This document shows, piece after piece, positions 12,001 through 55,678 of a stretch of DNA of 64,000 nucleotides (positions are counted from its first letter, which is position 1; every line of letters starts with the position of its first letter). The translations under genes were made by a program, and so were the position numbers. The notes under the pieces are model-generated. The model worked only from the letters and a program-made list of their open reading frames with translations. It had not been told where the DNA came from and did no database searches. The DNA is from an uncultured archaeon (GTDB lineage Archaea; Aenigmatarchaeota; Aenigmatarchaeia; QMZP01; JAFGSV01): assembly GCA_964559215.1 (NCBI GenBank), contig CAZLFZ010000003.1:18779-82778 (forward strand). The letters run 5' to 3'.

Positions 12001-13736
12001 CCTGTTTCATTGCATGAGTAGTTTTCTATAAATACCGATGAATTACCAGGGCCGTTGTCGATCCATTGGTATTCCAGCACAGCGTAACCGCATTTTATTC
12101 CCAAAAATTTCAAATCATAATCTTCATTGACGTTGCTCCAAGTAGTTCCGTTTACCGCTGTAATCGTGAGATTCGCGGTTCCATTCGTCTCGAAAATCAC
12201 GGTCCATTTCCCACCTACTGTCGGATAGGATTGGACGTTTATTATGTTTATGTCCGCTCCTGCGTATCCACTGAATTCCGTAACTGTAAAAGTCACATGA
12301 GTCCCGTTCTCTGTGAAAGGCATGCCCGTTTCAGTCCATTCCCCTTCACATTCAAAATTGTCAAAGTCCCAGTCGTCGCATCTCAATATCATGCTGACAG
12401 GACCGTGCTTAGGCAGGGTGATTTCAGCATCCGAGAAATTTATGGGATTGACGGCAATCACTTCCGTGTTTATCACTTTCTCTTCCACTTTCTCTCTCAC
12501 AAGTCCGGTCTGGATGTTCTTTAACTCGGAAATGTTCCTCAGGCCGAATAATCTTATCAAACCACCCCTCCCTCCAACACTTCCGTCAAACTGGACATCG
12601 AGATTGAATCTCTCACCAATCTTCTTTAGTTCACCAAACTCTATTTTTTTAGAGTGTTTTCCTAATCTGAGTGTGCTGAGACTGTTCTTGAGCCGAGCCA
12701 TTTCCATTTCTGCAGCCGTGATGTTTTCGGCAGATGGAACGACAATCTCTTCCAGCATGGAATAAACTATCTCATAAATTTCCAACCTTGTTCCAGGCTC
12801 GACTTCGAAAACTAGTATGTAAGAGCTTTCCTTGAATCCAAACAGCGAGCATGTCTCAATGCACTCCTCATCAAATGTTATGACAAATTCTTCGGTTATG
12901 TTCGGCATTTCTGTTACATTCTCTGTTATGTTTTCCAGAAGGGTAACATTTTCAATGACAGTCGGAACCGTTAAATTCTTGGCGACGGTCACATTTTTGG
13001 ATGATGTAAGATTGGTCTCATTTTGATTCGTTACATTTTCGATTAAAGGCACCGTGACATTCGTTACATTTTCTATTGTCACGTTTTCGATTATCGGGGC
13101 GGTAAAATTCGTCACATTCCCCCCCGTTTCATTCAACGTTTCATCAATTTCTTCTTCGTCTTCTCCATTCCCGGTATTATCTGTTTCATTCGTCAACGTT
13201 TCATTTATTGTAACATTAGTCAAATTTGATTCATTAGAACTGATTATAAAACCTGTTACAGAGATGGTGTTTCCAGCCAGTCTGTATTTGTTACCCATTC
13301 CGGAACTGTCAAGAACCAAGTATCTTTCACCGTCTTTTTCAAGATAAACCCTGACGGTTCCGTTCCCTTCAATTTTCCCATTCAACTTTAAAGATACAAG
13401 TTCTCCTGCATTCTCCGGCTTCCATAAGTATTCTCTAGGCTCTTCATATGAAAGCCCCAGTTTATCAACATGAATTGTTTCCCTTTCTTGAATAAAAAGC
13501 CCGGTAAAGTTGATGCTAAAGATTCCAAAGAAAGTTGTGGAAATGGAGATAACCAAAATTAATAATAAAACCCTTTTGTTCCACTGACCCGCAAAATTTC
13601 TAATTCTCAAAGTAGTGGGAGAAGGGGGTTTTGTACCAAGATATTTTGTTTTAACTTTATCTCCCACCCTATAATTTTCATAGTAATAAGGACCGAAAAC
13701 CTTGTTGCCACGCTTTATGTATTTCTTGTGGACCAA
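1..13736 (-). CDS. giant N-glycosylated cell-surface protein, 5' portion of gene (TTG start at 13736 preceded by in-frame TGA; reading frame open to position 1, >4570 codons; 3' end outside window)
   Basis: Hand translation of large parts of one minus frame gave no stop; the ORF track shows only short out-of-frame ORFs on either strand here. N-terminus (L)VHKKYIKRGNKVFGPYYYENYR followed by a hydrophobic signal-anchor is paralogous to the N-terminus of the 19813-25857 product. There are hundreds of NxS/T sequons. The segment ..NVQSYPTVGGKWTVIFETNGTANLTITAVNG..ENYSCNETGYEISKVL..HTLEFRFGEYVAYA is about 60% identical to the protein encoded at about 62790-63090 on the plus strand. Confidence 0.75.
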   Translation of the reverse strand, partial: MVHKKYIKRGNKVFGPYYYENYRVGDKVKTKYLGTKPPSPTTLRIRNFAGQWNKRVLLLILVISISTTFFGIFSINFTGLFIQERETIHVDKLGLSYEEPREYLWKPENAGELVSLKLNGKIEGNGTVRVYLEKDGERYLVLDSSGMGNKYRLAGNTISVTGFIISSNESNLTNVTINETLTNETDNTGNGEDEEEIDETLNETGGNVTNFTAPIIENVTIENVTNVTVPLIENVTNQNETNLTSSKNVTVAKNLTVPTVIENVTLLENITENVTEMPNITEEFVITFDEECIETCSLFGFKESSYILVFEVEPGTRLEIYEIVYSMLEEIVVPSAENITAAEMEMARLKNSLSTLRLGKHSKKIEFGELKKIGERFNLDVQFDGSVGGRGGLIRLFGLRNISELKNIQTGLVREKVEEKVINTEVIAVNPINFSDAEITLPKHGPVSMILRCDDWDFDNFECEGEWTETGMPFTENGTHVTFTVTEFSGYAGADINIINVQSYPTVGGKWTVIFETNGTANLTITAVNGTTWSNVNEDYDLKFLGIKCGYAVLEYQWIDNGPGNSSVFIENYSCNETGYEISKVLTPGVHTLEFRFGEYVAYARNKATERKIVGEWGHETDLQQGSWTEVKFKNEFDGIPVVVHYVEYDYNYDDNPCATRIKNVTKEGFYARAESWDSGTEDDDCPSTGVGMYWMAMKKGIHNVTDNDGGNSRMVEVQNFTLDKDYCGSGAGTPSGWNYVQNERSFQYSWTYRPAVLASVQTADDDDTIIWYIHQCGTQANVWDNSCVEIGLNGLECQGSYNPCALHTLDEEGGYIAWEINDDYNSEACNTYETGNGTDTYTYELCWESDSVLGSQNDPYDIGSYYVTLSASYADGACFGSSTEIDGGNGLYPAGDYDAGSNMCYFLAEEDQNGDAEQGHIAEPWLAIFFNSSSGFIYSNETIEYPTNLTAEGDFIGLPSIAFNQSVFFQGNCSEVDGDTNATDVYIILQDNRTEVWNDTPTSGQDIYSNATYYFVGNITASTTSENYFNITAPVTGNYYFRVQCNASNAGESNSTPRLLTVYDPAAPAWSNVGANETNPSIDDYVKFYAYWEDDYNLSSWIFSWNATVDDSWENKSAESFSGTGKWSNKTLQIPAYSAGKIIGYRFYANDTRGNLNATDIKTISVQSKIDAEPPQINWFNATPNITGYGQTVTIATNITDNVGVDSGSVKTNVTFPNNSSVLLNMGYKSGDIWELDFNDTWQWGKYSYFVQAEDTSALPVSSSDNPENFSIRVNATVLVNTEKETYSANKNVYLTEWAGWMNKSWPYRMPINISENLGVNLTNYQVNISVDTKSLISQGKMNGSCNDIRFVNSSNDELSFWLESGCNTTDTKVWVKLPLLQGSAKQTIYMYYGYKQAGSKSNISSTYEIVGEAGTIDTDHNWKTVNFNYMYSEAPVVFADAMTYNDNAKMSARINATRKGGFDVRVEEYHNLDGPHGTEIFGWVALKNGSWIIGNLRADVGTDSIDSNYKTVNFGFDFGSTPAVISDIQSYNEGGDSGTAEAGAHTRQNNPTSSSMEIRVEEANDSGSHTYETIGYLAIEEGVANTTYTNGVYFETGWDDCGPDLGSSPAWLTLSFTNNFGDTPGMIGAMMNENGYTDNSNTRMKDVGTAQFDITIEETPDFTGGHGIEPVGWFAIDNTSTIYGRKYVEQAPSVMNLGEEELTNLVDNEGTTDTSGYLLMQVTDNDTGEVIATQVNDSQTQTMRNVSTGGYLELGPIWNANPWNTDDYGTGYYNVLVVLTDLDGNVLVNDTGDNITGYYTLYIDRAEPEWNNLGANNTNPKPLEFVEFYCNWSDNGELDSWVFEWNVSGSMEQNGSGSFIGNPDWSNITRQIPSSMEIRTIAYRFVANDTEGNDNTTDTKYIDVQDVTPPVISNEYVSPGMININQSVDITADVTDNSGAVNTSWMYIGVPGDGYENETMTLLSGNTYNLSYKSTERGTYNATVYANDSSGNADNGSVVFWDVYGWSNVSWIDPDDGSYPRGSVINLICLVEDANYSGAISDYYVTFWHEGGQLGANYTNQSGYALYEWNTSNVDGGLHTVNCTIGDNSSLYYNASAVDNAYTSVTVLVPDLNVTVLEHENEHDHSVNEYETGDTIDWVNVTVNNTGGSTAYEVNVTLNLLDPAGDLATWFDEQVEECGSLSVSEVCEVQFSGDTILESADPGTYTWNVTINWSGGGSPPNYNTSSTFFVHHVPDNLSSSLSPTKILQKQSVIYNITIVNPWSLNVTSVNVTIGCHSNMTCNCSLAGQTDQLNYCYLGNVSDGGNETVSFNVTTNSSTVPGEYDINANVNYTNPGLELRSWTEQENQILSVRGPTKLRVNVTVFSVKVTRGSATGLRGYVNNTGTQVTNQVTLNWTLPPEWTNITGDMNVSNETLCADCLLWNNITANLSYDAELGEQKIELRAGSEEEEPDWKTETVTVYANTSIPEVWVNDTNPYRNSSVKIMARLLYDNSSPVTGESIMFKLNDTVLGSNSTNSTGYAVLYATVPYDAGLGSKKVNATYAGSGSIYTNPRYNDSLVASVQDDISIGNVAATPQIQGYGQNVTISADVWSRIEIGIVRANVTYPNGSWTWVDMGYSGSGNSYSGVFAGIWDWGDYSYWIWANNTVDFGNDTSSSPETFYLRANASVGVQTEKYLYGSNQNVLLDNQTWLDLDWPYRMPFNISENSGADLVEYALNISVNTKDLISQGKMNGSCSDIRFTNSTGDELPFWLESDCNDTNTSIWVKIPSLDALSNQTIYMYYGNLDAENKSNFTAAWKVIGEANVTKVNTTWHTISLKHSYTTPVVVHGPADFDANQDEEVVGRVTNVSSDGFEFKLQEPNEGGCRDDVHPDENISYIVVENGSWVLSDGRKLEAGNYSTSTTTGRAIGGDNTADPAAYDLISYRMSFSSAPVVVSQTMGYDDSDYDKTRMMDVTSSSFRISHNEDEGQSDIHGPEMVGWIAVEPGNGSVNGVDYNFGTTVADRYIDYCASPYECPWATQTFSIPVTNPPVLIANMQTVGGGDNAYIRYNNPTTSSVDFGVEEDPCSGTEKGGADETVGWMVFAGPVEIYGRQFLSTYPTVSNMSEEIAGNSIRNTGSLNISGYLLMQVEGNGSGYWEVIGVVADETFTRTINAGDSLNLVNIWNSDPWNTTGNTTGYYRVYTAFRGLDGAVLKNDSGGFINGSDVFRIEVEGPDIADVTATPQIIGYDQNLTISATITDSAGVAQAKINIIYPNSSTTSVDMVNTQGDTWACNFSYTWQWGDYNYSIWAQDNFGDANETSSNYQFSVRANVTVNLTTEYSVYGDDGLVNLSAASVKNTGTTNISLYFLMQVQVNDTGEIIATQVDDAQTETKRNVSAGKTLDIASVWNANPWNTTKNGTGYYNVLVTLTDPYGNVLTNDTGDNISGYYTFYIDRDEPEWNNLGANNTNPKPLEWIKFYCNWSDNGELDSWVFEWNVSGSMEQNGSGSFIGNPDWSNITRQIPSSAELKTIAYRFVANDTKGNSNTTDMKYVNIQDVTPPVISNEDVTPDLININQTVNITADITDNSGGVNASWAYIGMPSGGFDDNRSLTLLSGDTYNLTYKSTERGTYNVTVYANDSSANVDNGSVVTWDVYGWSNVTWIDPDDGSCPRGSVINLTCLVGDANYSTGIEDYSVMFWHEGGQLGANYTNQSGYAVYEWNTSDVDGGMHTVNCTIGDNSSLYYSASSVDNAYTTLTILVPDLNVTELEHENEYDNSVNEYETGDTIDWANVTVNNTGGSTAYDVNVTLNLLDPQNDLAAWFDEQSILCGSLSVGETCEVQFAQDTIQTGADPGTYTWNVTINWSGGGSPPNYNATSTFIIHHVPDNLSSVISPSKVQQNQSAVYNITIVNPWSLNMTSVNVTIGCDVNMTCNCSLAGQLNQIGYCYLGNVSSTENKTASFNITTNSSTVPGEYDITATVNYTNPGLEERSLAEQQNQILSVRGPTKLSVNISAYSVKVTRGQSYVLKGYVNNTGEEITNNVTLNWTLPPEWTNITGDMNISNETLCAGCLLWNNITANLSYDAGLGQKEIELRSESEEEEADWDTKSVTVYANTSIPIVLVNDTNPYRNGSILIQARLLYDNSSPVTGESITFKLNGNVLGSDDTNSSGYAALHTMIPYDANIGSNTVNASYAGSDLVYTNSKQNDSVSVSVQDEITIDNVVAIPQIQGYAQNVTISADVWSRVEIDTVRANVTYPNGTWTWLDLDYSGSGNIYSGVFESIWDWGDYSYWIWANNTMDFANETSGSPEEFYLRVNASIDLQTEETIYGPNQYVSIDTQNWWNKSWEWRIKINITEESGSNLTDYQVNITLNTTDFIQRNRMNNDCSDVRFVFFNDSVSKGGNTRLYHWIGDDCNQGNTTVWVKIPLLQENSNLSIYMYYGNPDAASESNISGTFVFGDDFKRPDNATVGNDWIEDGGYEAYSSVENNQLKISSGSSTGAYWKQVHHTMLEPDGDYVVEFKGDASQTDKNVFSNYFGEQNNRRLTILFCSDGKIKYLNQTAFEDTTKTYSPNTYFDFRIWYKKSAGKGNYYVNGDL
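240..10300. repeat. intragenic tandem super-repeats (at least 3 units of about 4.2-4.9 kb) within the giant gene; unit junction landmarks '..a(t/a)tacatgtaaat(c/a)g' near 475, 5388 and 9557
   Basis: DNA self-similarity at offset of about 4.9 kb, e.g. 990-1170 vs 5880-6070 (about 80% identical) and 700-900 vs 5600-5800. A block of about 130 bp at 3228-3360 is essentially identical to 8119-8250. Antisense artefact ORFs 2481-2954 and 7356-7622 in the track encode near-identical peptides, which confirms the duplication. Confidence 0.7.
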
Positions 13737-17312: not shown

Positions 17313-18317
17313 TCAGATAATTTCCCTTCTTTTCTCGATGTCCGCACTGTAATCTGCCAACATGTTAAGGTTCTTCATCAGAGAAGTTTTCATATCTTCC
17401 TTTGTGCAAAAGAAAATGCCCTTGACATCGCTTTTTCTCAGCTTGTTGATAAGCGAGTGGGCAAATCTTATTACCATCTCCTCGTCCTGATACGCCAGCA
17501 AAGTTGAAATCGAATCGAAGATCAACCCGTCAAACCTTTTGCTTTGCAGGCATTTTTCTACCGACAGCAAAATTTCGGTCATGTCAGATGGACCCGTGAG
17601 TTTTTCATAGTTTTTGCCCTTGGAAACGGTTTCACCCTCAGAAGAAGCATCTATGAAATAGAAACAGTCGGTCTTTATCCCGTTGTTTTTCAGGATTTCT
17701 ATTATCGAAAAATACGGCTTGTTAACCGTAACGAATATGATTCTTGGAATGGCCTTGGTGACAGCCTTTATTATCGACAGGGAATCCACCGGATATAGCG
17801 CGTTTGATATCAAGAAAGTCAGTACCTGGTTTTTTTCGGTTTCCCTTTTAAGGTCTATCGAGTGCCTTCTGACCAAGACCTTGAGATCCCTGTAGGAGCT
17901 TAAACTAACACTCTCTTCTTTGAATTCCTCGTCCATGGCAGTGATGATGTCGGTGGTGGTTATTATGCCAGACAGTTTCCCCTTCTTCATCACAGGCAGT
18001 TTTTTTATGTCATTCGCTTTCATCAGCTTTACGGCCTCTTGCAAGGTCCTGCCTTCGTCAATGGTTATGACGTTTTTAGACATAACCTCCCTTATTTTTA
18101 TATTGTCCGGATTTTTTGCAGACATCACTACCTTGCTGAGTATGTCTCTTTCAGTGATGATGCCAACGACATCAACCCCCTCGACTATCACTATCGAGCC
18201 CATCCAGTATTTGGACATCTTCTCTGCGGCCCGCTTTATCGTATCATCAGGGCCCAGGGTCCTTACATTCTTGTTCATTTCCTGCTTTACAAGGGCAACC
18301 ATAACAAATAATATCAA
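17313..18317 (-). CDS. CBS-pair fused to Walker-less KaiC/RecA-fold (MEDS-like) domain protein
   Basis: Two CBS motifs (..GIITERDIL.., ..GIITTTDII..). The C-terminal 180 aa are paralogous to the small proteins at 26862-27410, 27541-28089 and 34872-35444 (FIDA/FIDC ... (I/L)FDSIS(T/A)LL ...). The probable true start is an internal Met (MNKNVRTLGPDD, about 18278). Confidence 0.75.
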   Translation of the reverse strand: MILFVMVALVKQEMNKNVRTLGPDDTIKRAAEKMSKYWMGSIVIVEGVDVVGIITERDILSKVVMSAKNPDNIKIREVMSKNVITIDEGRTLQEAVKLMKANDIKKLPVMKKGKLSGIITTTDIITAMDEEFKEESVSLSSYRDLKVLVRRHSIDLKRETEKNQVLTFLISNALYPVDSLSIIKAVTKAIPRIIFVTVNKPYFSIIEILKNNGIKTDCFYFIDASSEGETVSKGKNYEKLTGPSDMTEILLSVEKCLQSKRFDGLIFDSISTLLAYQDEEMVIRFAHSLINKLRKSDVKGIFFCTKEDMKTSLMKNLNMLADYSADIEKRREII

Positions 18318-18527
18318 TTCCTTCTTAAAAAGCTGACTATTTCAACTTCAAAATTTGTAGAATTCCCGAAAATTTCAAATCATAAAAATTTGTCAAAGAA
18401 CTATTTTAATAGATGGCGGATTTCTCATGATACTTTATATCAAGGTATCAAGGTTTCGGATAGGAAAACAAAATAAATCTTCTGTCACTAGCGAAAATTC
18501 GACGGAAACACAGCTTTTCAGAACAAG

Positions 18528-19028
18528 CTACTGTCGAATTTTGTACAATTTTCTTTGACACTTCAGTTCTGATACCAAAACCCCCCTTAGTTCTATCTCA
18601 CGCAGATATTCGCTGCACCCAGTCCTCGATAATTTCAGCAATTCGCTCAGTTGGGGGGCACCCAAGCTTCCATGCTGCTGAATTAACATGATTATCATTT
18701 CTTTTACCCTCATTTTTCTGACGCTCGGGCTGGTTTTCCCTTGACTGTTCGACTGGTACAAAAACATCAATTCGTCCATTTTCTCGGCAACTTCCTCGAG
18801 TCTGGTGTTCATCTCGTTAGTTCTGTCTTCAAGGCCGTGCTCCCTCACGTTGCCACTCCTGATGTTGTAGAGAACAATGACACCATCAGCCAGGAACTCC
18901 TCCACTCCTGTTGGACTGTATATCTTCGGGTCCTGGTTGGTCTCTGATATGAGGAACGTGTTGACATTCATCTCCTCGAAGAATCTGAAAAGCCGGTTTA
19001 TGTACAGCCTGTAGGTCTCGCCCTTCAT
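18528..19028 (-). CDS. chimeric ORF: C-terminal about 65 aa of a KaiC-like ATPase fused to the wHTH C-terminal domain of the 55679-56140 family (probable recombination remnant)
   Basis: Residues 1-66 (ETYRLYINRLFRFFEEMNVNTFLISETNQDPKIYSPTGVEEFLADGVIVLYNIRSGNVREHGLE) match the C-terminal third of the KaiC at 41728-42585. Residues 67-166 are about 88% identical to the C-terminal 100 aa of 55679-56140. The ATGA overlap with the KaiC stop at 19025-19028 indicates translational coupling. Confidence 0.6.
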   Translation of the reverse strand: MKGETYRLYINRLFRFFEEMNVNTFLISETNQDPKIYSPTGVEEFLADGVIVLYNIRSGNVREHGLEDRTNEMNTRLEEVAEKMDELMFLYQSNSQGKTSPSVRKMRVKEMIIMLIQQHGSLGAPQLSELLKLSRTGCSEYLREIELRGVLVSELKCQRKLYKIRQ

Positions 19029-19780
19029 GTCTTACGCATCGTTGCTATAGTCGGCGTCTTTATCTTAAGCAACTCCAGTCCCTTTTTGGTTATGGCAAAG
19101 GGGTGGATAAATGTTGAATGATCTGTTCTTCTCATCTTACTGATTAGCATAGTTCTGTTGTAGCGCTCTGCAACAGGAACGAACTCGAGGCCGATGACAG
19201 CATCCACAACGAATTCGGTCAATGCCTCCTCACCAAGAATTACCCCTTGTTCTGCTATCCCTTCTGTGAACATGGTCGTTACTCCAAGTTTCTTTAACAA
19301 TTTAGTAAGACTCATCAACGTAACTCTTGACGTGTATCGGTTCTGTATAAACATTTGCAGAATCGACACAGAATCGATAACCACCCGCTGCGCTTTCATC
19401 GATTTAACATCTTCAGCTATTTTATTGGTGAATTCAGATATGTACGCTTTTATGAGGCGGTCAGTCTTTTCCTCTTTGCCAGCAGCTAGGGGCATTACTG
19501 ATACGAACTTCAACAGCCCCTTTTTCTCCAAGGATTTCAGGTCCCAGCCAAACATCTTTTTAATATCCATCCGAATGTCATCCTCTTCTTGCTCGGTGGT
19601 GACATACAATCCCGGTTCTTTATTCAAAGCACCAGCATACAAGAAGGAAGAGCAGAAAGCGGTCTTCCCCGTCCCTGCTTTGCCCCTAATCAAAACAACA
19701 CTGTTATTTACAAATCCGCCTTCTATCTTTTCGTCGAAACCGATTACCCCGCTCTTCAGTCTTTCCTCACCCTCAGCCAT
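19025..19780 (-). CDS. single-domain KaiC-like RecA-superfamily ATPase
   Basis: Walker A GKAGTGKTAF, Walker B-like VVIDSVS, and an overall KaiC/RadA (COG0467) pattern; 251 aa. Confidence 0.9.
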   Translation of the reverse strand: MAEGEERLKSGVIGFDEKIEGGFVNNSVVLIRGKAGTGKTAFCSSFLYAGALNKEPGLYVTTEQEEDDIRMDIKKMFGWDLKSLEKKGLLKFVSVMPLAAGKEEKTDRLIKAYISEFTNKIAEDVKSMKAQRVVIDSVSILQMFIQNRYTSRVTLMSLTKLLKKLGVTTMFTEGIAEQGVILGEEALTEFVVDAVIGLEFVPVAERYNRTMLISKMRRTDHSTFIHPFAITKKGLELLKIKTPTIATMRKT

Positions 19781-19812: not shown

Positions 19813-20540
19813 TTATTTCTTACCCTTGTTTTTCCCCACATCTTTCGCTTTTTTCTTTTTCTCTTTCCGCTGCTTGCCATAGTCCTTTTGCACGCGCTTT
19901 GTGTCCTCAGCGGTTTCCAGCAGTTTAGCCATACTCTTTTCTGCCTGTTCTTCTTTCTCAGCTTCTTCCTTGATGTGTTTCTCAATCGCCCTTACATCCT
20001 CCAGCTCCTCGAGCAATTCCAATCCCTTTTTTTGTTCTTCAGCATCTTTTTTGGTAAGCTTTGGGAGCTTTTTCAACTCCCCCTTTTTCTTCTCGTAGTC
20101 CTTTTGCACGCGTTTTATGTCCTCTAACTTTTCCATTAGTTCGTTTTCCCTCTTCCATATTTTTTCCTGCTTCTCGGCCTTCTGTTCGGACTCTTTTTCC
20201 AGGGCCTTGGTATTCTCCAGCTCCTCGAGCAGCTTCAGCTCTTTGTCCCTCTTCTCGATTTCTGATTTCTTCAGTTTCTTTACCTTTATCCTTGTTCCGG
20301 TCTTTTTCAACCATTTATCGTATTGTTTCTGTACCCCCTTCATATCCTCAGCTTTTTCGAGCACAGCAAACCATCTTTTCTCTTTCCTTCTCTTAACTTT
20401 CCTGTCAGTTTCTTTCTGAACGGCTTTTACATCTTCAAGCTCTTCAAGCATCTGCTCTGTTGCTATTTGCTTTGCCTTCTCCTTCTTTCTCGGCTCCCTT
20501 GTTTTTTTCGGCAAGCCGGAGGGGAGTCTCGCCCCTGACA
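19813..20540. repeat. tandem coding repeats of about 215-220 bp (6 copies of the LEELEDxKxVQKDY motif) in the cytoplasmic tail
   Basis: Recurring DNA strings ctccagctcctcgagca (about 19995, 20215), gtccttttgcacgcg (about 19883, 20098) and tcttcaagctcttcaagca (about 20437). These generate the low-complexity artefact ORFs seen on the plus strand. Confidence 0.6.
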
Positions 20541-23500
20541 GTTTCCAGGCCCACAATATCCAGAAAATGAATGCAAGTGCTATGAGTATGAACTGCCACA
20601 GTTCGTCAGGGATGTGTGTCACTATTTCCCATGTGTAGGTTTTCTCGATCCAGACGATACCGGCGATCATTGCCAGATTGCTGAGATGCATGAGCGGCAG
20701 GCCAATGACCAATCCCAGCGCCCTCTTTCTGCCCGTGACACCCACCGTAGCTAATACAAGCGCTGCGTAGATGAGTAGGGACTCCAATCCCGTCACCTGC
20801 ACAGCTCTGGTGACGGCATCAGCAAGTGGGATGAAACCCAGCACATTCGTGATGAAAAGTACTTCTTCCCTGACGACTGCCTGCACAATGCTCATGTCGG
20901 GACGCAGCCAGCGTATAAGATACACCGGGATGCAGAACACGAGAAGCCGGAGCGCAAAGTACAAGAGGTATACCCCCTTCCGCTGCATCGCACTCGATTT
21001 CGTTGAGGCGATGGCCCACCTGAGCGAACGTAAAATCAGTACGGGGAACTTAAAGAGCTGCGAAAGAATGTACCGGGGCCGCACGATTTCGTGTAGCTTC
21101 TTTCCATTTTCCTCTATTAGACTGCTTATCTCAAGCAGCCTGTCATGCTCTTTGGTGATTATCTTCAGGTACGTGGCTTTATCGATTTGCCTGGTGAAAT
21201 ACTGAGCCTCTGTTGATTCTTCTGTTTTGGCAGTTATTTTTGCCTCTTCTCCCAACTTCCTGGTCTCTTTTTTCAGCCTGTAGAGGGGGATGAAGAGCTG
21301 GGTTGTAAAGAAGCTTGCGAAGAAGATGGCAAGTGCTATTCCTGTGATGTACCATTTGTTCTCAAACAGGAACTTTTGAATCCCCACCCTGGCTAATCCA
21401 AGTCCAATTTCATTAATCCCCATTTCTATCCTGGAAATTGAAATCCTTAATTCTTCCAGATCGTCCATTTTTATAGCATCCATTGACTCCGAAATCGTTT
21501 TTTCGATGTTCTTTACCTTTCCATGCAAGGCGCCAACATCAACGCCTGCCTTGGCATACTCATTGACCCTTAAAACCAAGTCTGGTACCTGTTTTTCCAG
21601 CCCATTTAAAGAAGTAATCAAGGGGTTTTCAAGCACAACGATATTTACACTTTTACTTTTCTCCAAATCAGCAGTGCCTATTCTAACAGTTAGCAAATAC
21701 TCTCTCAACTCTGTGTTAAGGGGCACGTGGATAATTACCGAAAAATCTATTTCGCCCTTAACGGGCAAATAAAATTCTTTGTCTATGAAGACAGCACAAC
21801 ACTCCTTTGTTATGTTAGAGCTCAGGTTGAGATCAAGGTTTCCCATGTTAGCAATGGAGCCGATAACCGTCCCGTTCTCACCCCCAACTATTTCAATAAC
21901 CCTGGTGTCAACTGTCACGTTAAAATTCTCAGTCCAAATTATGCATGCCGGGTCTCTGGCACAGTCTGTGTCACCGCAATCCACAAATCCGTCACAATCG
22001 TTGTCAAGCCCATCAGAGCAATTCTTTGGAGTTGGGACACATGTAACATTGCTTATGTTGCCGACAATGCTGGGTCCTCTTCCCCTACTTGGCGGGGGCT
22101 CTGCGGCTTCCTCGGCTTTCGTTTTAAGTGATAAAGAGCCAGGTCCTGTGTTGTTATACTCGTCTGTTGCATTAGCCGTCAAGTAAAATTCGATTCCTGG
22201 TGTTGAGGATGACCTGCAGTCAGCGGAAATGTTGTAATACAAATCACCGGTTCTTTCCAGTGAAAAATTGCCGTTGGGGCAAAACAGGGCCACGTTCACG
22301 GTGTAACCCAATAGTTCATTTCTTGAGTTATACACCTCTATCTGGGGTATGGGGGATATCCCGGAATTGGCAGAATACTCGGTCCCGGCAGGGGGCTGGG
22401 TGAATACGGGAAGCAGGCTGGAGCTTACGTTGAAATACCATGTACCGTTTCCCCTATTCTCCTGTTTTGACACATTTGCAAACATGGTGCAGTTTCCAGC
22501 TGGGTCGCTTTCATTTATCTGATAAGTATAGGTTGTGTTGGTTTCGTTGAATATCATTGCTTCGCTCTGGTTATATCTCGTCAGATTAACGGTCCAATTA
22601 ACCGAACTTACCAAATTGTCATTAACATCATAAACCTTGAGTGTCAGGGTTTCCCCTCTGCTATAAACAGATTCGTTCGTGGTCAGATTTAACGTGTACG
22701 AATCACTGACGTAGAAGGTGAGATTTTCCGGACAGCCCACATCCTCCCCGCTCTTTTTTTCATTATTGCCAATATCTACCGCTGTTATTCTTATCGTACA
22801 ATTCCCTGTTCGGTTTAATTCAAGGTTTTCTACATTATTTCCAGCACCGAATTTAAATTGCCAGATATCACTCGAAATCTTTTCCAAAGTCCCATTAACG
22901 CTGATGTTATCAGGATAGGTGATGTTGGCTCTTACAGATACGAGACTCACGTCATCTGTGGCATTCACAAAAATTGAAAGGGAAGTGAAAAGATTTGTTT
23001 TGTTCACCCCTATCCCACTGTAGTTGAACCAGAAATCGGTCACATTTGGTGGTATGGGGTCTTCCAGTATAACATCTATTGACAGTGAAGAATAGTTAAA
23101 CCCTCCCTCTCTGGTGCTGGAATTCACATAAGTCGTTGTGTTTGTCACGCCAACAGCACTTGCGTTTATGCTCCAATTAACAGAAGAAGAGGAGCCACTC
23201 GGGATAAAAGATATGTTTTTCGTCCAATTTTCACCAGCGCTTATGTTCAAGATAGTCTGATTCTCGATACTAAGGTTTATGGTTAAATTCCTGAGATCGC
23301 CATTGTCCGCGGAAACCAGGGTTTTGTACGTCTTTGTTTCGCCCTTAATTATGACTTCCGGCGCATCTATCGACACCAGGGACTCTCCAAAATTGACCAC
23401 AAAGCTTGCATTATTCCTGACAGAACTATCCTGGGTGTAAACGGTGGCGTTAACGATGTGAGCACCGGACAGTGTTATGTTCGTGTAATTAAACTCATAG

Positions 23501-25857
23501 ACATAGCACATGGAAACTCTTTCCTCTGCTGTAAATAATCTGAACTCATAGATTATCAGGACAGCTGACGAGGAGTGATTTACCCTTATTTGGTTTGTTC
23601 TGAAGGGCGAGAATCCGGAAAATTCAGTCAAATTCTTGTCGTCGGGCGGGTTCACATCGGTGAAAAGAGGCATCCATGCACCGCTTTTTTTGTATAAAAT
23701 AGAAACATTTGCCTGACCGGCGCCATCCTCCCATAAGGCCTCGATTCTATCAAAGGTATAGCTGTCATTCAGCGTTATCTCAAGCCATGATGGGGTTTCA
23801 TCGCCAATCCAGGCAGTGTCAGTATTGTTGTCTATAGACAAGTTGCAGGACCCGACGTTGCAATTACCGCTTGTCCCTAAGTCAAGTAGCGCAACATTTT
23901 GACCTGTTCCTGTCCCAGCTTCTACACATTCGCTTTCATTTAGAATAGCAACCAATGCAGAGCTTGTGAAATCAACCCCAGCTAAATAGGGCTTTTCTAT
24001 GCTGAAGTTCAGCATATTTATGGGTGTCACATTTCCCACCACCTCTGTCCTTAGGGTTGTGTCGCCTGTGATGTTTATTGTGCTTGGAAATACAGTAATG
24101 TCTGGTAAAATAACTTCGTGTGAAATAGAATCCTCAGCACCAGTGCCATTGGCAGGGGTTGCATGCAAAGAGACACGTGTAAATCCTTCCTGTTTTGACT
24201 CTGCTTCCCATTTCACCGTTATTGTTGTCCCGTTTGTAATATTATACAGCTCCGGTTTGGACCACGTTCCCCCGGGGGTGAGGTTCAGAACACTTCGGTC
24301 CGTGATATTTAAAGTCAAATTCACCTGCATCAAATCCCCGTTTATAGCGGTAACGTTTACAGTGATGTTGCACGTTTGATTAGCAAGAATTCTGAAATTT
24401 GGAAAGATGAACTGGAGCTCAGTTGAGCCAAAACCCACCTCAAAGGAAAGATTGGTATAATCTTCAAAGTTTATATTCCCCAGGGTATCGTTTGCCCAGA
24501 CTTGCATTACATTATATGTTCCTAGCTGAGAAGTATCGTTCCACTCATAGATCCAGAAATCAGTGCCACTAGAATTAGAAAGAGTTACATTAACCTCTGT
24601 CCCATTTGGATACATAAAAGTCGCATTAACCGCGCTAACACCACTCGTGTCGTTTACTGTTACATTGAACAACACTCCATGACCAGGCTGGATTTTCGTC
24701 TCGTTCAACTGCGGGTTTGAAATTGTTGGACCTGTTGTATCATAGCTTAGTGTCTTCCATGCAGTACAATTATAGGTACCAGAGCAGTAGAATTCCATCT
24801 TTACTGGTATACCACCAACCCATTCAAGACACTCCCATTGTTGACAGACCTTCTTTGTTTCATCCCAAAAACTACAGTTCCATCTGTCACAGTAGTAGTC
24901 TGTTTCTGAGAATGCTCCATCGATTGAGCCTAAACACTCCCATTGATCGCAATAATTTCCATTCCAAGCAGAGCAATTCCATCCATTTGAACAATACCTG
25001 TCATACTCCTCTGAACTTTCAGCCCATGCTGTGCAGTTCCAAGCCTCGCAAACATCTCCATTCCAAACTATACAATCCCATACACCAGAACAATAAGAGT
25101 CTGCCTTTTGAGTTGATCCCTGAGCCCATTCGGTGCAATTCCAAATGTCACAATTAGTTCCGTTCCAGTTTGTACAGTTCCAGATGCCAGTAGAATAGTA
25201 ATCAGAGTCGTCATTTTCACTAAGAGACCAAGCTGTACAGTTCCAGTATCCACAATACCCCCCATTCCACTCTAGGCAATCCCAGTCACCAGAACAATAC
25301 ATAAGTCGTCTATCTTTTCCGCTGTTTGTCCACCCCTCGCACTTGTATTCTGCACAAGTAACCCCATTCCAACGTGTGCAGTTCCAGTTGCCTATACAGT
25401 ATTTTGACTGCTTGTCATCATCATATGTCCATGCCGTGCAGTTCCATAATTCACACTTCTCTGTAGTCTGTCCATAATCATTTAACTGGATTGGGGATTC
25501 ATCAAAATTATTGCCATCTGCCGGTCCCTTATCACTTACCCAAAAACCTTCAGACGACATAAAGAATGCGAGTGTCGCTTTTGGAGTAGCTGATACTAAA
25601 GGAATAAAGAAAAAAATGGTAAATAAAGAAATTAAGAAAACACCGAAAAACATACCTCCTTTTTTTCTACGCAGGATGTTTCTAAAAGGTCTCCGCCTGG
25701 GCTTGTGTTTCTTTCTAATTTCTTTCAACTTTTTTGTTGCCCCAGAGAAATCCTGACCAAGATAAACGTTGATGACCCGGCCATCCTTGTCCCTGAAGCT
25801 TTCATAATAATAAGGCCCGTGAATTTTTTTGCCTCTTTTTATATACTTCTTGTACAC
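19813..25857 (-). CDS. giant cell-surface glycoprotein (2014 aa): cytoplasmic N-terminal motif, signal-anchor, Cys/Trp repeat array, sequon-rich Ig/CARDB-like region, multi-TM segment and Lys/Glu-rich cytoplasmic repeat tail
   Basis: Complete ORF in the track. N-terminus MYKKYIKRGKKIHGPYYYESFRDKDG followed by TM FFGVFLISLFTIFFFIPLV. About 7 copies of WNCTAW..YCSG.W(N/D)C..WNG..C. More than 100 NxS/T sequons. About 7 predicted TM helices near the C-terminus, then LEELEDVKAVQK(D/E)Y repeats. Confidence 0.85.
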   Translation of the reverse strand: MYKKYIKRGKKIHGPYYYESFRDKDGRVINVYLGQDFSGATKKLKEIRKKHKPRRRPFRNILRRKKGGMFFGVFLISLFTIFFFIPLVSATPKATLAFFMSSEGFWVSDKGPADGNNFDESPIQLNDYGQTTEKCELWNCTAWTYDDDKQSKYCIGNWNCTRWNGVTCAEYKCEGWTNSGKDRRLMYCSGDWDCLEWNGGYCGYWNCTAWSLSENDDSDYYSTGIWNCTNWNGTNCDIWNCTEWAQGSTQKADSYCSGVWDCIVWNGDVCEAWNCTAWAESSEEYDRYCSNGWNCSAWNGNYCDQWECLGSIDGAFSETDYYCDRWNCSFWDETKKVCQQWECLEWVGGIPVKMEFYCSGTYNCTAWKTLSYDTTGPTISNPQLNETKIQPGHGVLFNVTVNDTSGVSAVNATFMYPNGTEVNVTLSNSSGTDFWIYEWNDTSQLGTYNVMQVWANDTLGNINFEDYTNLSFEVGFGSTELQFIFPNFRILANQTCNITVNVTAINGDLMQVNLTLNITDRSVLNLTPGGTWSKPELYNITNGTTITVKWEAESKQEGFTRVSLHATPANGTGAEDSISHEVILPDITVFPSTINITGDTTLRTEVVGNVTPINMLNFSIEKPYLAGVDFTSSALVAILNESECVEAGTGTGQNVALLDLGTSGNCNVGSCNLSIDNNTDTAWIGDETPSWLEITLNDSYTFDRIEALWEDGAGQANVSILYKKSGAWMPLFTDVNPPDDKNLTEFSGFSPFRTNQIRVNHSSSAVLIIYEFRLFTAEERVSMCYVYEFNYTNITLSGAHIVNATVYTQDSSVRNNASFVVNFGESLVSIDAPEVIIKGETKTYKTLVSADNGDLRNLTINLSIENQTILNISAGENWTKNISFIPSGSSSSVNWSINASAVGVTNTTTYVNSSTREGGFNYSSLSIDVILEDPIPPNVTDFWFNYSGIGVNKTNLFTSLSIFVNATDDVSLVSVRANITYPDNISVNGTLEKISSDIWQFKFGAGNNVENLELNRTGNCTIRITAVDIGNNEKKSGEDVGCPENLTFYVSDSYTLNLTTNESVYSRGETLTLKVYDVNDNLVSSVNWTVNLTRYNQSEAMIFNETNTTYTYQINESDPAGNCTMFANVSKQENRGNGTWYFNVSSSLLPVFTQPPAGTEYSANSGISPIPQIEVYNSRNELLGYTVNVALFCPNGNFSLERTGDLYYNISADCRSSSTPGIEFYLTANATDEYNNTGPGSLSLKTKAEEAAEPPPSRGRGPSIVGNISNVTCVPTPKNCSDGLDNDCDGFVDCGDTDCARDPACIIWTENFNVTVDTRVIEIVGGENGTVIGSIANMGNLDLNLSSNITKECCAVFIDKEFYLPVKGEIDFSVIIHVPLNTELREYLLTVRIGTADLEKSKSVNIVVLENPLITSLNGLEKQVPDLVLRVNEYAKAGVDVGALHGKVKNIEKTISESMDAIKMDDLEELRISISRIEMGINEIGLGLARVGIQKFLFENKWYITGIALAIFFASFFTTQLFIPLYRLKKETRKLGEEAKITAKTEESTEAQYFTRQIDKATYLKIITKEHDRLLEISSLIEENGKKLHEIVRPRYILSQLFKFPVLILRSLRWAIASTKSSAMQRKGVYLLYFALRLLVFCIPVYLIRWLRPDMSIVQAVVREEVLFITNVLGFIPLADAVTRAVQVTGLESLLIYAALVLATVGVTGRKRALGLVIGLPLMHLSNLAMIAGIVWIEKTYTWEIVTHIPDELWQFILIALAFIFWILWAWKLSGARLPSGLPKKTREPRKKEKAKQIATEQMLEELEDVKAVQKETDRKVKRRKEKRWFAVLEKAEDMKGVQKQYDKWLKKTGTRIKVKKLKKSEIEKRDKELKLLEELENTKALEKESEQKAEKQEKIWKRENELMEKLEDIKRVQKDYEKKKGELKKLPKLTKKDAEEQKKGLELLEELEDVRAIEKHIKEEAEKEEQAEKSMAKLLETAEDTKRVQKDYGKQRKEKKKKAKDVGKNKGKK
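24750..25440. repeat. array of about 34-residue Cys/Trp-rich repeats (WNCTAW..(x11)..YCSGxW(N/D)CxxWNGxxC) within the giant protein
   Basis: Visible in the translation: WNCTAWTYDDD.., WNCTRWNGVTC, WDCLEWNGGYCGYWNCTAWSL.., WNCTNWNGTNCDIWNCTEWAQ.., WDCIVWNGDVCEAWNCTAWAE.., WNCSAWNGNYCDQWECLG.., WNCSFWDE... Each unit carries an N-C-T sequon. Confidence 0.65.
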
Positions 25858-26083: not shown

Positions 26084-26854
26084 CTATTGTTTGTCAAAAA
26101 GGCTCTGCGCCTGGACATCTATCCCTTTGTTGGTAATCGTGAAATTGTAATACCCTTCGGTGAACGCAGAGCCACGTATCTTTTGTATGCTCAATCCCCT
26201 ATATGCTTTCCCCTCGCTATGCACATAGTCTAATTGTATGACCCCGTCAGCAATGAATTTCAACTGTTGCCAGTAGCCTGTTTCCGCCTCAACGGTAACC
26301 AGGGCGGTGACACCCAATTTTGCTATGTGTTTAAAGAAGGTCATGGCTCCCATCCTCGCCAGCGACTCAGAATCTGCCATCAAACTGATCGCGGTCAGGG
26401 GGTCTATGACCAAGCGTCGTGCACCAATTTCATTGACCGCCTCCTTGATAAGTTCAATGAGCGTATTGGTCGAAAGAAAATGGACACTTTTTTGGGCTTG
26501 TGACGTTGAACTAGTATATGCCGATAAAGCATTCTCAATATCACTAGAGACCGCCCTTATGTAAGGGATCACGCGGACCAAGTTTTCCCTTTCCAGTTTC
26601 TCTAGATCCCAGCCAAAGGATTTGATATTGCTTAACATCTTTGGCTTATCTTCTTCCAGATTGACGAGGACGCCCGGCTCCTTGAACTTGGCTGCACCAT
26701 TATAGATGAACTCCAACCCAAATATAGTCTTCCCTGTTCCGCAACCGCCAGTAATCACATAGATTTTCTTTTCTGGCAACCCTCCGTTTAAGAGTTCATC
26801 TAACCCTGCTATCCCGGTTTTGACCCGTTTCGGACCTGGTCTTTTTTCGCCCAT
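26084..26854 (-). CDS. single-domain KaiC-like ATPase
   Basis: GIAGLDELLNGGLP, Walker A GGCGTGKTIF, ..LVIDPLTA..; 256 aa. Confidence 0.9.
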   Translation of the reverse strand: MGEKRPGPKRVKTGIAGLDELLNGGLPEKKIYVITGGCGTGKTIFGLEFIYNGAAKFKEPGVLVNLEEDKPKMLSNIKSFGWDLEKLERENLVRVIPYIRAVSSDIENALSAYTSSTSQAQKSVHFLSTNTLIELIKEAVNEIGARRLVIDPLTAISLMADSESLARMGAMTFFKHIAKLGVTALVTVEAETGYWQQLKFIADGVIQLDYVHSEGKAYRGLSIQKIRGSAFTEGYYNFTITNKGIDVQAQSLFDKQ

Positions 26855-26861
26855 TTTCCCT

Positions 26862-27410
26862 TCACCTACCCTTTTCCTTACCCGTAAATATAATTTTATC
26901 AGAAAACATGCCCAAGTTTTTTATGAAATCTTCGTGCGCATCTTCTTCGAGACAGATAAAAATGCACCCCTTCTCAGATATTCTAAGCTTCGATACCAGC
27001 AAGTGCGTGAACTTGATGGCACTTGCCTGACTCCCATAGACCAAAAGGGTGGACAAGGAATCAAACAAGATGCAATCCACGTGCATGAGCAATGCCTTGG
27101 TAACCGTTATGCTCAATTCGGTGAGCGCATCAGGAGAAGATACAAATAACACCTGCCCTTCTTTCTGTTTTTCATCTACCCCCTTTACACAATCTATAAA
27201 AAGTATCTTCTTCGTATCGATTCCTCCCCCTTTAAATTCCTTTGTCAAGGTCGTGTACGGCTTGTTAAGAGACAAGTAACATATCATATTATGAATCTTT
27301 GTAGCAGCGCCAACAATCTCCTCTAGGGCGGTTCTATAGTTTTTGCTGGGAACAACAAAAACAACGACTTGATTTTCCTTCATCTCCATCTCTAGGTTTA
27401 TTTTCAGCAT
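26862..27410 (-). CDS. Walker-A-less KaiC/RecA-fold small protein (MEDS-like), 182 aa; operon partner of the KaiC at 26084-26854 (7-nt gap)
   Basis: Aligns along the KaiC core, but the P-loop is replaced (VVVFVVPSKNYRTALEEI). Conserved FIDCV ... ILFDSLSTLLVY ... FICLEED shared with three paralogs in the window. Confidence 0.75.
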   Translation of the reverse strand: MLKINLEMEMKENQVVVFVVPSKNYRTALEEIVGAATKIHNMICYLSLNKPYTTLTKEFKGGGIDTKKILFIDCVKGVDEKQKEGQVLFVSSPDALTELSITVTKALLMHVDCILFDSLSTLLVYGSQASAIKFTHLLVSKLRISEKGCIFICLEEDAHEDFIKNLGMFSDKIIFTGKEKGR

Positions 27411-27540
27411 CGTTACCTCGCGCTTCTACAGATCACGATTCGTGTTATGTTTTTCGTATTTTATTTTTATATGCTCTGCTTAATTAAGTTTTGGTAAGAA
27501 GCCTCATATTTATTAACGAAGAGAATACTTAAGATTTAAT

Positions 27541-28089
27541 ATGAAAAGTTTGGAAAGTTTAAACAAAATCCTTGAAAATGTGCTGAAAAAGAGGGCAATA
27601 ATTCTGCTCTCGTTTCTAAGCAAGGAATACAGAACTGGGATGACGAATCTAATAGCCTTTGCGACACACACGTTCAATAAGACCTGCTACGTCACGCTTA
27701 ATGATCCCTACGAAAGTATAGCCAGCAGGCTGGATGAGGAGCAGAAGTCCAAGCTGTTCTTCATAGACTGCATGACGGCTACGATCAAAACACCGGAGAC
27801 AAAAGAAAATGTGGTTTTCGTGTCGTCACCCCACGCTTTGACGGAGATGAGCATAGCATTAAAAAAAGTCATGGAAAAGGAAAAAATTGATTTTGTCATA
27901 TTTGATTCAATTTCAGCTTTGCTGGTTTATGAACAACCCTTATCGGTCCTGAAATTCGTTCATAGCCTAATCCTGATGTCCAGGGAAGCGAATCTGGGTA
28001 ACTCTTTTGTAATCCTGAAGGAGGATGTCAGCGAGCAATTGATGAAAGACCTGGCCATGTTTGTTGACAAAATTGTGGAGGTGGTATGA
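27541..28089 (+). CDS. Walker-A-less KaiC/RecA-fold small protein (MEDS-like), 182 aa
   Basis: Paralog of 26862-27410 (FFIDCMTA .. VIFDSISALLVYEQ .. VILKEDV). The stop TGA at 28087-89 is immediately followed by the GTG start of the PAS protein. Confidence 0.75.
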   Translation: MKSLESLNKILENVLKKRAIILLSFLSKEYRTGMTNLIAFATHTFNKTCYVTLNDPYESIASRLDEEQKSKLFFIDCMTATIKTPETKENVVFVSSPHALTEMSIALKKVMEKEKIDFVIFDSISALLVYEQPLSVLKFVHSLILMSREANLGNSFVILKEDVSEQLMKDLAMFVDKIVEVV

Positions 28090-53326: not shown

Positions 53327-53451
53327 TTTGCACCCGATTTTTGCCTCATAACATCATATTGCTTGCCCTTTGACCAGAGCACCGCGGGATTCTTGAATCT
53401 CGATTTGACCTCTCTCAGTATGTACTCGGTTTTGGCTTCCAAATCCTTCAT
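53314..53451 (-). pseudogene. truncated duplicate of the 5' end of the PAPS-reductase-like gene (45 codons, then frameshifted/terminated)
   Basis: Encodes MKDLEAKTEYILREVKSRFKNPAVLWSKGK.., versus the intact gene's MKDLISKTEYILKEVRSRFKNPAVLWSTGKD. DNA at 53340-53451 is about 85% identical to 52420-52503. Its ATG overlaps the TGA of the phosphodiesterase gene. Confidence 0.6.
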
Positions 53452-55586: not shown

Positions 55587-55678
55587 TAAGAAGTTTAAGT
55601 TTTTGTTTAATATTAATATAAAGGCAAAAGGCAATTTAGAGCTGGATATGGATAGGAAATAACACAAAATTCAAAATT

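Follow-up and report, generated by a model that had tools for sequence, protein, structure and literature searches.

A Cys/Trp-rich domain of giant archaeal surface proteins and its proposed closed, disulfide-stapled architecture

The 64,000-nucleotide stretch analyzed here (contig CAZLFZ010000003.1 of assembly GCA_964559215.1, positions 18,779 to 82,778 of the forward strand; referred to as the window) belongs to an uncultured archaeon of the Aenigmatarchaeota and contains, on its minus strand, the gene of a 2014-residue surface protein that carries an array of Cys/Trp-rich repeats near its N-terminus. An initial annotation, made from the DNA letters alone, suggested that the repeats are small disulfide- or metal-stabilized knots, possibly binding carbohydrate. 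What kind of module do the repeats actually form, and what could it do on the cell surface? The analysis described below leads us to favor on balance, as the best explanation of the whole, an extracellular domain of about 280 residues that would fold into a closed, seven-fold, disulfide-stapled β-toroid and probably serve as a binding head.

Extent and kinship of the repeat-bearing domain

Cys and Trp are enriched in residues 131-385, where their numbers of 27 and 25 amount to 10.6% and 9.8%; elsewhere in the protein they account for 1.2% and 1.7%. Split at the YC motif, this stretch yields six full units (aa 153-356; 34, 34, 34, 33, 34, and 35 residues) with the consensus Y-C-S-G-x-W-N-C-T-x-W-N-G-x-x-C-x-x-W-N-C-T-x-W plus a roughly 10-residue linker and with the Cys spacing C-x5(4)-C-x7-C-x4-C; each is matched at 44-51 bits by a one-unit profile hidden Markov model. 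The same profile gives partial matches on either side, to CELWNCTAW at aa 134-145 (unit positions 15-26) and to YCSGTYNCTAW at aa 357-367 (unit positions 1-11), and the repeat stretch as a whole (aa 135-372) reads half-unit, six units, half-unit. The repeats near the N-terminus noted in the initial annotation are thus real, with a period of 33-35 residues, though several particulars need revision: the count of about seven becomes six full units plus two half-units, the four to five Cys and four Trp per repeat become four Cys in every full unit but unit 3 (three, residue 222 being Ser) and three to four Trp/Tyr at the four aromatic positions of a unit, and the N-C-T sequon thought to be embedded in each repeat is found, as N-C-[ST], in 9 of the 14 WxC half-motifs of the domain. 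The region first delimited (24750-25440, aa 140-369) does contain the repeats, but the full conserved domain is wider. Its parts are listed below, where C1 to C4 denote the four Cys of a unit, Cys1 to Cys28 the conserved Cys columns of the domain, and Ser222 and Cys241 residues of the protein.

24742..25587, minus strand: whole conserved Cys/Trp domain, aa 91-372 (profile from 20 homologues, 405 bits, profile positions 6-298)
25456..25587, minus strand: conserved non-repeat preamble, aa 91-134, TPKATLAFFMSSEGF..DKG..FDESPIQLNDYGQTTEK
25402..25455, minus strand: N-terminal half-unit, aa 135-152, CELWNCTAW plus linker, with C3- and C4-type cysteines (Cys1, Cys2)
25300..25401, minus strand: unit 1, aa 153-186, YCIGNWNCTRWNGVTCAEYKCEGW plus linker (49 bits)
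25198..25299, minus strand: unit 2, aa 187-220 (46 bits)
25096..25197, minus strand: unit 3, aa 221-254, its first Cys replaced by Ser222
24997..25095, minus strand: unit 4, aa 255-287 (49 bits)
24895..24996, minus strand: unit 5, aa 288-321, its C1 and C4 being Cys19 and Cys22
24790..24894, minus strand: unit 6, aa 322-356, YCDRWNCSFWDETKKVCQQWECLEW, central loop (DExKK) longer, spacing C-x4-C
24742..24789, minus strand: C-terminal half-unit or cap, aa 357-372, YCSGTYNCTAWKTLSY, with C1- and C2-type cysteines (Cys27, Cys28)

At the DNA level, Tandem Repeats Finder detects no tandem repeat in the Cys/Trp region, indicating that the units are old and diverged rather than products of a recent amplification or an assembly artefact, and chance is excluded as the origin of the array by its column-by-column conservation in more than 25 homologous domains. 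These homologues were found mainly with a two-unit profile, which was searched against every representative of 1.84 billion protein clusters and matched 30 cluster representatives (P numbers), with E<1e-30 for 21; a few at the weak end (P0026, P0028-P0030) are apparently spurious, leaving about 25 relatives, mostly giant surface proteins of archaea. A metagenome scan added 14 further loci (L numbers), JGI metagenomes supplying several and a contig named SMTZ1 one, and a scan of viral contigs revealed no relatives of the domain. Homology searches by word index returned two fragments only with the repeat region and three known members only with the 20-sequence domain alignment; with the two-unit profile the result was empty and, owing to candidate selection, uninformative, given that P0001 reaches 193 bits with this very profile. 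Among the genuine members very large proteins predominate (1400-6006 aa), and names are uninformative, most entries being unnamed or "hypothetical"; for P0015, which comes from a Nanoarchaeota single-amplified genome and turned up again as locus L002, the only name refers to a LamG-like domain.

Scans against Pfam and NCBIfam at E<=1 to 10 covered both the complete protein and the domain in isolation. Over aa 91-372 neither database gave a credible match, EGF-like, lectin, Kelch, WD40, TSP_1, and hemopexin families included, and NCBIfam gave none for the isolated domain or for P0018. No Pfam family covers the repeats in nine relatives (P0003-5, P0008-9, P0018, P0020, P0022, P0025), and a profile made from the 20 domain sequences hit no PDB chain at E<=10. 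A match of TPR_17 to aa 91-372 was rejected as chance level (E 0.094, 13.5 bits vs. a 24.4-bit cutoff). The earlier impression that this is not a named domain is upheld by these searches, and Foldseek comparison of the whole-domain model (described below) with the PDB gave nothing significant; the literature searched contained no description of the Cys/Trp domain. Judged from sequence, the domain represents an undescribed and rare archaeal family residing mainly in giant surface proteins.

The family has one layout. Each of the 20 complete cluster representatives carries a single block with eight unit-profile matches' worth of sequence, and the 20 blocks align nearly gap-free over about 300 columns, 28 of which are conserved Cys and 25 conserved aromatic positions. 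In every complete member a preamble of about 45 residues is followed by six units between two half-units (five full units in a variant, P0025, described below), with linkers of 8-14 residues. Units are conserved individually across proteins, units 1 and 6 being distinct, and unit 6 (family pattern YYCDRWNCSxWDExKKVCQxWxCLxW) is the most conserved, with the highest between-protein identity of the six (0.67). The terminal half-units are complementary, the N-terminal one corresponding to unit-profile positions 15-26 and the C-terminal one to positions 1-11. The preamble, which reads ..TPSATLAFFMSSEGF..DKG..FDExPIQLNDYGxTTEK across the family with its F, P, N, Y, and K columns invariant in the 20 homologues, belongs to the module, since in L004 277..2268 (contig SMTZ1_10037489), where one open reading frame (ORF) encodes a tandem of two full domains, both are introduced by a preamble of their own. 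Taken together, the fixed copy number and layout, the unit-specific conservation, the complementary half-units, the constant preamble, and the covariation of Cys1 with Cys28 (see below) make it very probable that repeats and preamble form one fixed domain of about 280 residues.

These findings bear directly on the separate knots first envisaged, taken here as an open tandem array of independent small disulfide-bonded modules (e.g., lectin-like ones), which could vary in number and would each bind carbohydrate. Such an array would agree with the clear unit consensus, in which every unit has its own four Cys, and with an AlphaFold model of two units (8-row alignment), which folds into β-hairpins at a predicted local distance difference test (pLDDT) score of 79; Trp-rich surfaces are, moreover, frequent in sugar-binding sites. 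However, the two-unit model finds no match in the PDB, and the number of units, which an open array would leave free to vary, is invariant across the complete members, whose individually conserved units always begin with the half carrying C3 and C4 (b-half) and end with that carrying C1 and C2 (a-half), the preamble attached and the first and last Cys covarying. In addition, four near-invariant Trp per unit are expected of a core, not of a ligand surface. For these reasons the picture of separate knots is not borne out, and we consider an open array very improbable.

Cysteine pairs and ring closure

The nature of the Cys-based stabilization was addressed with a covariation matrix of the 28 Cys columns in about 30 domains. 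The cysteines are almost never missing, and where they are, the losses come in pairs of the C1+C4 or C2+C3 type, with the exception of Ser222: P0005, P0009, L005, L008, P0022, and P0006 lack both Cys19 and Cys22 (C1 and C4 of unit 5), and P0018 and P0022 lack both Cys1 and Cys28, the first and last of the domain (C2+C3 type). The neighboring cysteines are kept throughout, and the replacements are Pro/Gly, Phe/Gly, Val/Ala, or Ala/Val. On a rough identity tree each double loss falls into at least two separate groups, so that paired losses arose independently at least four times, compared with a single unpaired loss. The latter, the sole unpaired loss in about 30 domains, is Ser222 of the window protein (TCT, one base from TGT; 25192..25194, minus strand), and the domain sequence, Ser222 included, is identical in the four recorded versions of this protein (NCBI, JGI, Logan).

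Loss of cysteines in specific pairs while their neighbors stay conserved favors disulfides over metal sites, and, of the two modes of stabilization initially left side by side, disulfides are the quite probable one. The domain shows what is generally seen in disulfide-rich extracellular repeats, namely, an even number of conserved Cys, pairwise Cys covariation, and extracellular features, and departs from Cys4 metal modules such as zinc ribbons, zinc knuckles, and rubredoxin-like centers in having no CxxC and in that two of the four Cys of a unit can go with the other two invariant. The metal reading would have the four Cys of each unit (C-x5-C-x7-C-x4-C) bind Zn, Fe, or Ni in seven Cys4 centers that are either structural or form an extracellular redox chain and that, unlike disulfides, would be stable in reducing, sulfidic sediment. 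It draws on the four conserved Cys per unit (28 in total), on the origin of relatives in sediment metagenomes, possibly anoxic, and on a MopE-like "putative metal-binding" motif elsewhere in the host protein (aa 1276-1305). Yet after the loss of two Cys from a unit the remaining two are strictly conserved, no His, Asp, or Glu takes the place of a lost ligand, and one of the lost pairs consists of the domain's first and last Cys, all of which fits separate disulfides rather than tetrahedral sites; with CxxC knuckles lacking and the domain predicted to be extracellular, metal binding by the array appears improbable.

The joint loss of the first and last Cys further points to contact between the two ends of the domain. 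The 28 Cys would then form 14 disulfides, nested as C1-C4 and C2-C3 in every unit, and the C-terminal half-unit (C1, C2) would combine with the N-terminal half-unit (C3, C4) to build a seventh unit, so that the chain closes on itself in a manner resembling the "velcro" or closing disulfide of β-propellers. The product would be a rigid seven-fold β-toroid with 34-residue blades, in which Trp residues packed against the disulfides constitute the core. We rejected a different delimitation of the unit (b-half, linker, a-half), in which disulfides would bridge the linker and the ring would stay open, because it predicts the pairs Cys19-Cys18 and Cys22-Cys23, not the observed joint losses of Cys19+Cys22 and Cys1+Cys28.

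The AlphaFold model of the whole domain (20-row alignment) has a mean pLDDT of 78 and a predicted template modeling score (pTM) of 0.79; the terminal half-units are confident (pLDDT 82-91; 82-90 for the C-terminal one) and the preamble is low (41-67). Its DSSP string shows four β-segments per 34-residue unit, ordered short-long-long-short, a pattern that a meander sheet and a kinked long hairpin could both give. Apart from the model, a closed architecture is supported by the fixed copy number, the complementary halves, and the Cys1/Cys28 covariation. The mode of closure of β-propellers is indicated indirectly by the sequences, with complementary half-units, co-loss of Cys1 and Cys28, and the same split in P0025, whereas blade length is not propeller-like, the units measuring 33-35 residues (32 in P0025). 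We find a closed seven-fold toroid, propeller-like but with unusually small blades, reasonably probable.

The variant just cited, P0025 from Candidatus Undinarchaeales, is distant and has six units: aa 44-245 comprise a half-unit, five units, and a half-unit with a 32-residue period and the exact spacing C-x4-C-x7-C-x4-C. The array comes after a hydrophobic N-terminal segment; beyond it lie a further Cys-rich region, a transmembrane segment, and TPR repeats on the cytoplasmic side. This topology is receptor-like and quite unlike that of the giant proteins.

Host proteins, location, and possible role

The question of where the domain acts leads to its host proteins, first of all to that of the window, whose further features are as follows.

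19813..25857, minus strand: gene of the 2014-aa surface protein (ORF call, Pfam/NCBIfam scans, hydropathy scan)
25594..25650, minus strand: hydrophobic segment, aa 70-88, directly before the Cys/Trp domain (hydropathy scan)
aa 670-763: F5/8 type C domain (Pfam match)
aa 1276-1305: acidic double-disulfide repeat (NCBIfam NF033662), with a Pfam MopE-like motif at aa 1280-1293
near aa 1507-1525: transmembrane segment (hydropathy scan)
aa 1630-1774: block of multiple transmembrane (multi-TM) segments

The hydrophobic segment, preceded by a 68-residue N-terminal extension read as cytoplasmic, is predicted to act as a signal peptide or signal anchor, placing the Cys/Trp domain outside the cell. The protein contains 87 N-x-S/T sequons, and host proteins in general have 4-6 N-x-S/T per 100 residues and, where companion domains are recognizable, immunoglobulin (Ig)-like (Big_7, Big_13), LamG, or F5/8 type C domains. 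A short, secretion-signal-like N-terminal hydrophobic segment directly before the preamble recurs in P0004, P0008, and P0020. The upstream signal segment and the sequon density of the hosts indicate, at the level of prediction, that the domain is extracellular. It occurs as a single copy, rarely two, and in several relatives it forms the start of the mature chain, ahead of a very long, sequon-rich stalk that includes Ig-like domains. Several members (P0004, P0020) combine the N-terminal segment with a C-terminal membrane anchor, and in proteins of this type the domain would accordingly be the membrane-distal tip.

The multi-TM block of the window protein weakly resembles exosortase/archaeosortase signatures (NCBIfam TIGR04178, E 0.004, below threshold); it would be unusual for a surface protein to carry a sortase-like block of its own. 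Together with a Lys/Glu-rich C-terminal tail, in which a motif LLEELEDVKxVQK recurs in at least four copies, it makes up aa 1630-2014 (19816..20970, minus strand).

A smaller host is P0018 (locus L011), a 520-aa protein with the Cys/Trp domain at its C-terminus. It is encoded together with the next two ORFs in L011 4486..8486 and starts with MKGQISLEQ and a hydrophobic stretch, the next ORF starting with MKGQISTEF. This N-terminus resembles an archaeal type IV pilin signal, so that the domain may be displayed on a pilus; scans of the pilin-like N-termini of P0018 and its neighbor against Pfam and NCBIfam gave no confirmation.

The WxC cysteines of the family show a marked coupling between Asn at position -1 and Ser/Thr at +1: both are present in 126 cases, Asn only in 10, Ser/Thr only in 60, and neither in 79 (odds ratio 16.6, Fisher p 8e-20, a value overstating independence as related sequences were pooled). 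Sequons are near-invariant at Cys24 (19/20) and Cys18 (16/20) and almost never found at Cys22 (1/20). The pattern could arise from N-glycosylation of particular sites or from pairing of Asn and Thr side chains that share a face of a strand.

As to function, the predicted extracellular location, the single copy, the position at the tip of stalks, the pilin-like case, and a blade-specific conservation that involves the linkers, the unit-6 loop, and the preamble lead us to consider a rigid head for adhesion or recognition, resistant to proteases and denaturation; we put its likelihood at not quite even. The binding surface would be the loop face, made up of the variable and rather acidic inter-unit linkers and the conserved DExKK loop of unit 6. 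That the ligand is specifically a carbohydrate, as had been suggested at the outset, is doubtful: the idea is compatible with a weak resemblance to the lectins PLL and BP39L but is otherwise unsupported, and the Trp residues, all four per unit being near-invariant, likely belong to the core rather than to a sugar-binding surface. Alternatively, the closed and compact domain might be purely structural or protective, a rigid glycosylated cap or spacer whose N-C-S/T sites carry N-glycans. This idea gains from the strong coupling and the near-invariant sequons just described and from the extreme sequon density of the host proteins; on the other hand, the coupling may equally reflect a hydrogen-bonded side-chain pair, the sequon density of the domain itself (1.3-5.7 per 100 aa) is usually below that of the rest of the host protein, the conservation of linkers, unit-6 loop, and preamble points to a conserved interaction, and the domain also occurs on the small pilin-like protein. 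A solely structural role is accordingly rather unlikely.

Returning to the closed, disulfide-stapled binding head, several points weigh against it. The disulfide map that covariation suggests is not reconciled with the blade geometry in the model: read as a simple hairpin with a two-residue turn after W-N, the DSSP string puts Trp opposite Cys and does not place C2 beside C3, and pooled within-unit mutual information, a weak signal, slightly favors this register, in which the covarying Cys are not adjacent. The covariation itself rests on about four or five independent loss events. The window protein, through Ser222, has an odd number of Cys, and its Cys241 would be left with no partner in the map, perhaps being used for an intermolecular bond. 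If the sediment habitats of the placed relatives (contig named SMTZ1) are reducing, 14 extracellular disulfides would be surprising. Finally, the hydrophobic segment of the window protein may be an uncleaved anchor, in which case the domain would be membrane-proximal and not a distal tip.

The giant surface proteins with which uncultivated archaea, DPANN symbionts among them, are thought to attach to other cells consist mostly of sequence in which no domain is recognizable; one such domain is now defined by its boundaries, a signature of 28 Cys and about 25 Trp, a fixed layout of seven units, a suggested disulfide map, and a sister variant of six units, and could enter family databases and serve to annotate these proteins. 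If a minimal disulfide-stapled toroid is confirmed, the size range of propeller-like folds is extended, a compact and probably very stable scaffold becomes of interest for protein design, and how sediment archaea oxidize 14 Cys pairs outside the cell becomes a question; if ligand binding is shown, it offers a tangible way into how these archaea recognize their hosts. In a more far-reaching and speculative form, which we hold possible though on the whole unlikely, the domain would be the smallest-bladed closed β-toroid or propeller known (34-residue blades with two disulfides each, 14 in total; seven-fold, and six-fold in Undinarchaeales) and an archaea-only recognition head by which giant surface proteins and pilus-like fibers attach to partner cells or surfaces, including the attachment of DPANN episymbionts such as Nanoarchaeota to their hosts; this would mean that archaea make and keep many extracellular disulfides, possibly in anoxic habitats.

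Neighboring genes and comparison with known systems

Three further genes of very large surface proteins lie in the window, as follows.

1..13736, minus strand: ORF of >4578 aa, running off the left end of the window
42999..47267, minus strand: 1422-aa Laminin_G_3/NPCBM-associated protein
57721..64000, plus strand: ORF of >2093 aa, running off the right end of the window

The Cys/Trp domain is absent from all three, and in the six-frame translation of the window its 20-homologue profile has no second match besides 24742..25587. The 2014-aa and >4578-aa proteins share an N-terminal motif of about 35 residues, [VH]KKYIKRGxKxxGPYYYExxRxxxxVxxxYLG, located at 25753..25857 and about 13630..13736 (both minus strand) before a basic stretch and a hydrophobic segment; the L006 relative (1457..1570) begins MAFKRYIKIKGKSYGPYYYKSYRENGKVINKYISK. 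The motif has no Pfam match and is a conserved N-terminal tag of giant surface proteins, probably located in the cytoplasm.

The gene of the 2014-aa protein is flanked on both sides by KaiC-like ATPase genes on the same strand (19025..19780 and 26084..26854), and the vicinity (17313..19780, minus strand, and 26084..28089) includes DUF7504/DUF835-like and CBS genes and genes of a KaiC fragment plus helix-turn-helix. In the closest genomic relative, L001 (JAIVYC010000025.1), a KaiC-like gene is directly upstream of the giant gene, accompanied by a response regulator and a DUF835-like gene (3177..6020), and the KaiC-like/DUF835-like neighborhood may be a conserved regulatory or assembly module. 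L001 is a 7-kb contig of 2x coverage in a metagenome-assembled genome labeled "Sulfurovum sp.", and its gene content (KaiC-like, DUF835-like, archaeal Cys/Trp domain) suggests mis-binning. Elsewhere in the window, a gene for a PMT_2/TMEM260-like GT-C glycosyltransferase (47430..48881, minus strand) adjoins that of the 1422-aa LamG surface protein, with sulfatase and phosphodiesterase genes nearby (50010..51503 and 53448..55667), a region that may represent a surface-glycosylation neighborhood. The gene content of the window, with histidine kinases, PAS/HAMP proteins, a homocitrate-synthase-like gene, and a sulfatase, bears little resemblance to that of a minimal DPANN genome.

The proposed architecture is worth comparing with those of established extracellular modules. 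Blades of β-propellers generally have 40-60 residues, those of Kelch-type, PLL, and BP39L propellers being roughly 45-55 residues long. Compared with the seven-bladed members of this group (Kelch-type glyoxal/galactose oxidases and the lectins PLL, 5c9o, and BP39L, 6gxr), the Cys/Trp domain has no sequence relationship (2-7% identity), and only about 135 residues superpose; its blades have 33-35 residues and four Cys each, whereas these propellers are essentially devoid of Cys. Homology to the PLL/BP39L lectin repeats in particular received no support from the PDB profile search at E<=10 or from the Kelch and lectin families of Pfam. The hemopexin-like domain, present in eukaryotes and bacteria, is a four-bladed propeller in which one disulfide joins the first and last blade, a closure equivalent to that suggested here by the Cys1/Cys28 covariation, although with four blades and one disulfide it shows no sequence similarity to the archaeal domain (no Pfam match).

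The thrombospondin type-1 repeat (TSR) likewise combines Trp and disulfides in small extracellular modules of long adhesive proteins. It is, however, a separate three-stranded module of about 60 residues with WxxW and CSVTCG motifs, in contrast to the archaeal motif C-x2-3-W-[ND]-C-x-x-W and its interdependent units, and Pfam TSP_1 gave no match on the Cys/Trp domain. The NF033662 acidic double-disulfide/MopE-type motif is also a Cys-rich extracellular repeat, and one within the same protein, but it is Asp-rich, devoid of Trp, and matches only aa 1276-1305, not the Cys/Trp array. A likeness in use is provided by PfCyRPA of Plasmodium, a six-bladed extracellular propeller that serves as a platform for cell-cell recognition and is held by four intra-sheet disulfides and one inter-sheet disulfide (PMC5349848). 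The archaeal domain would likewise be extracellular and propeller-like, with blades stapled by disulfides; PfCyRPA has five disulfides, blades of normal size, and no Trp/Cys consensus repeat, whereas the archaeal domain, to which it has no detectable homology, would contain 14 in about 240 residues.

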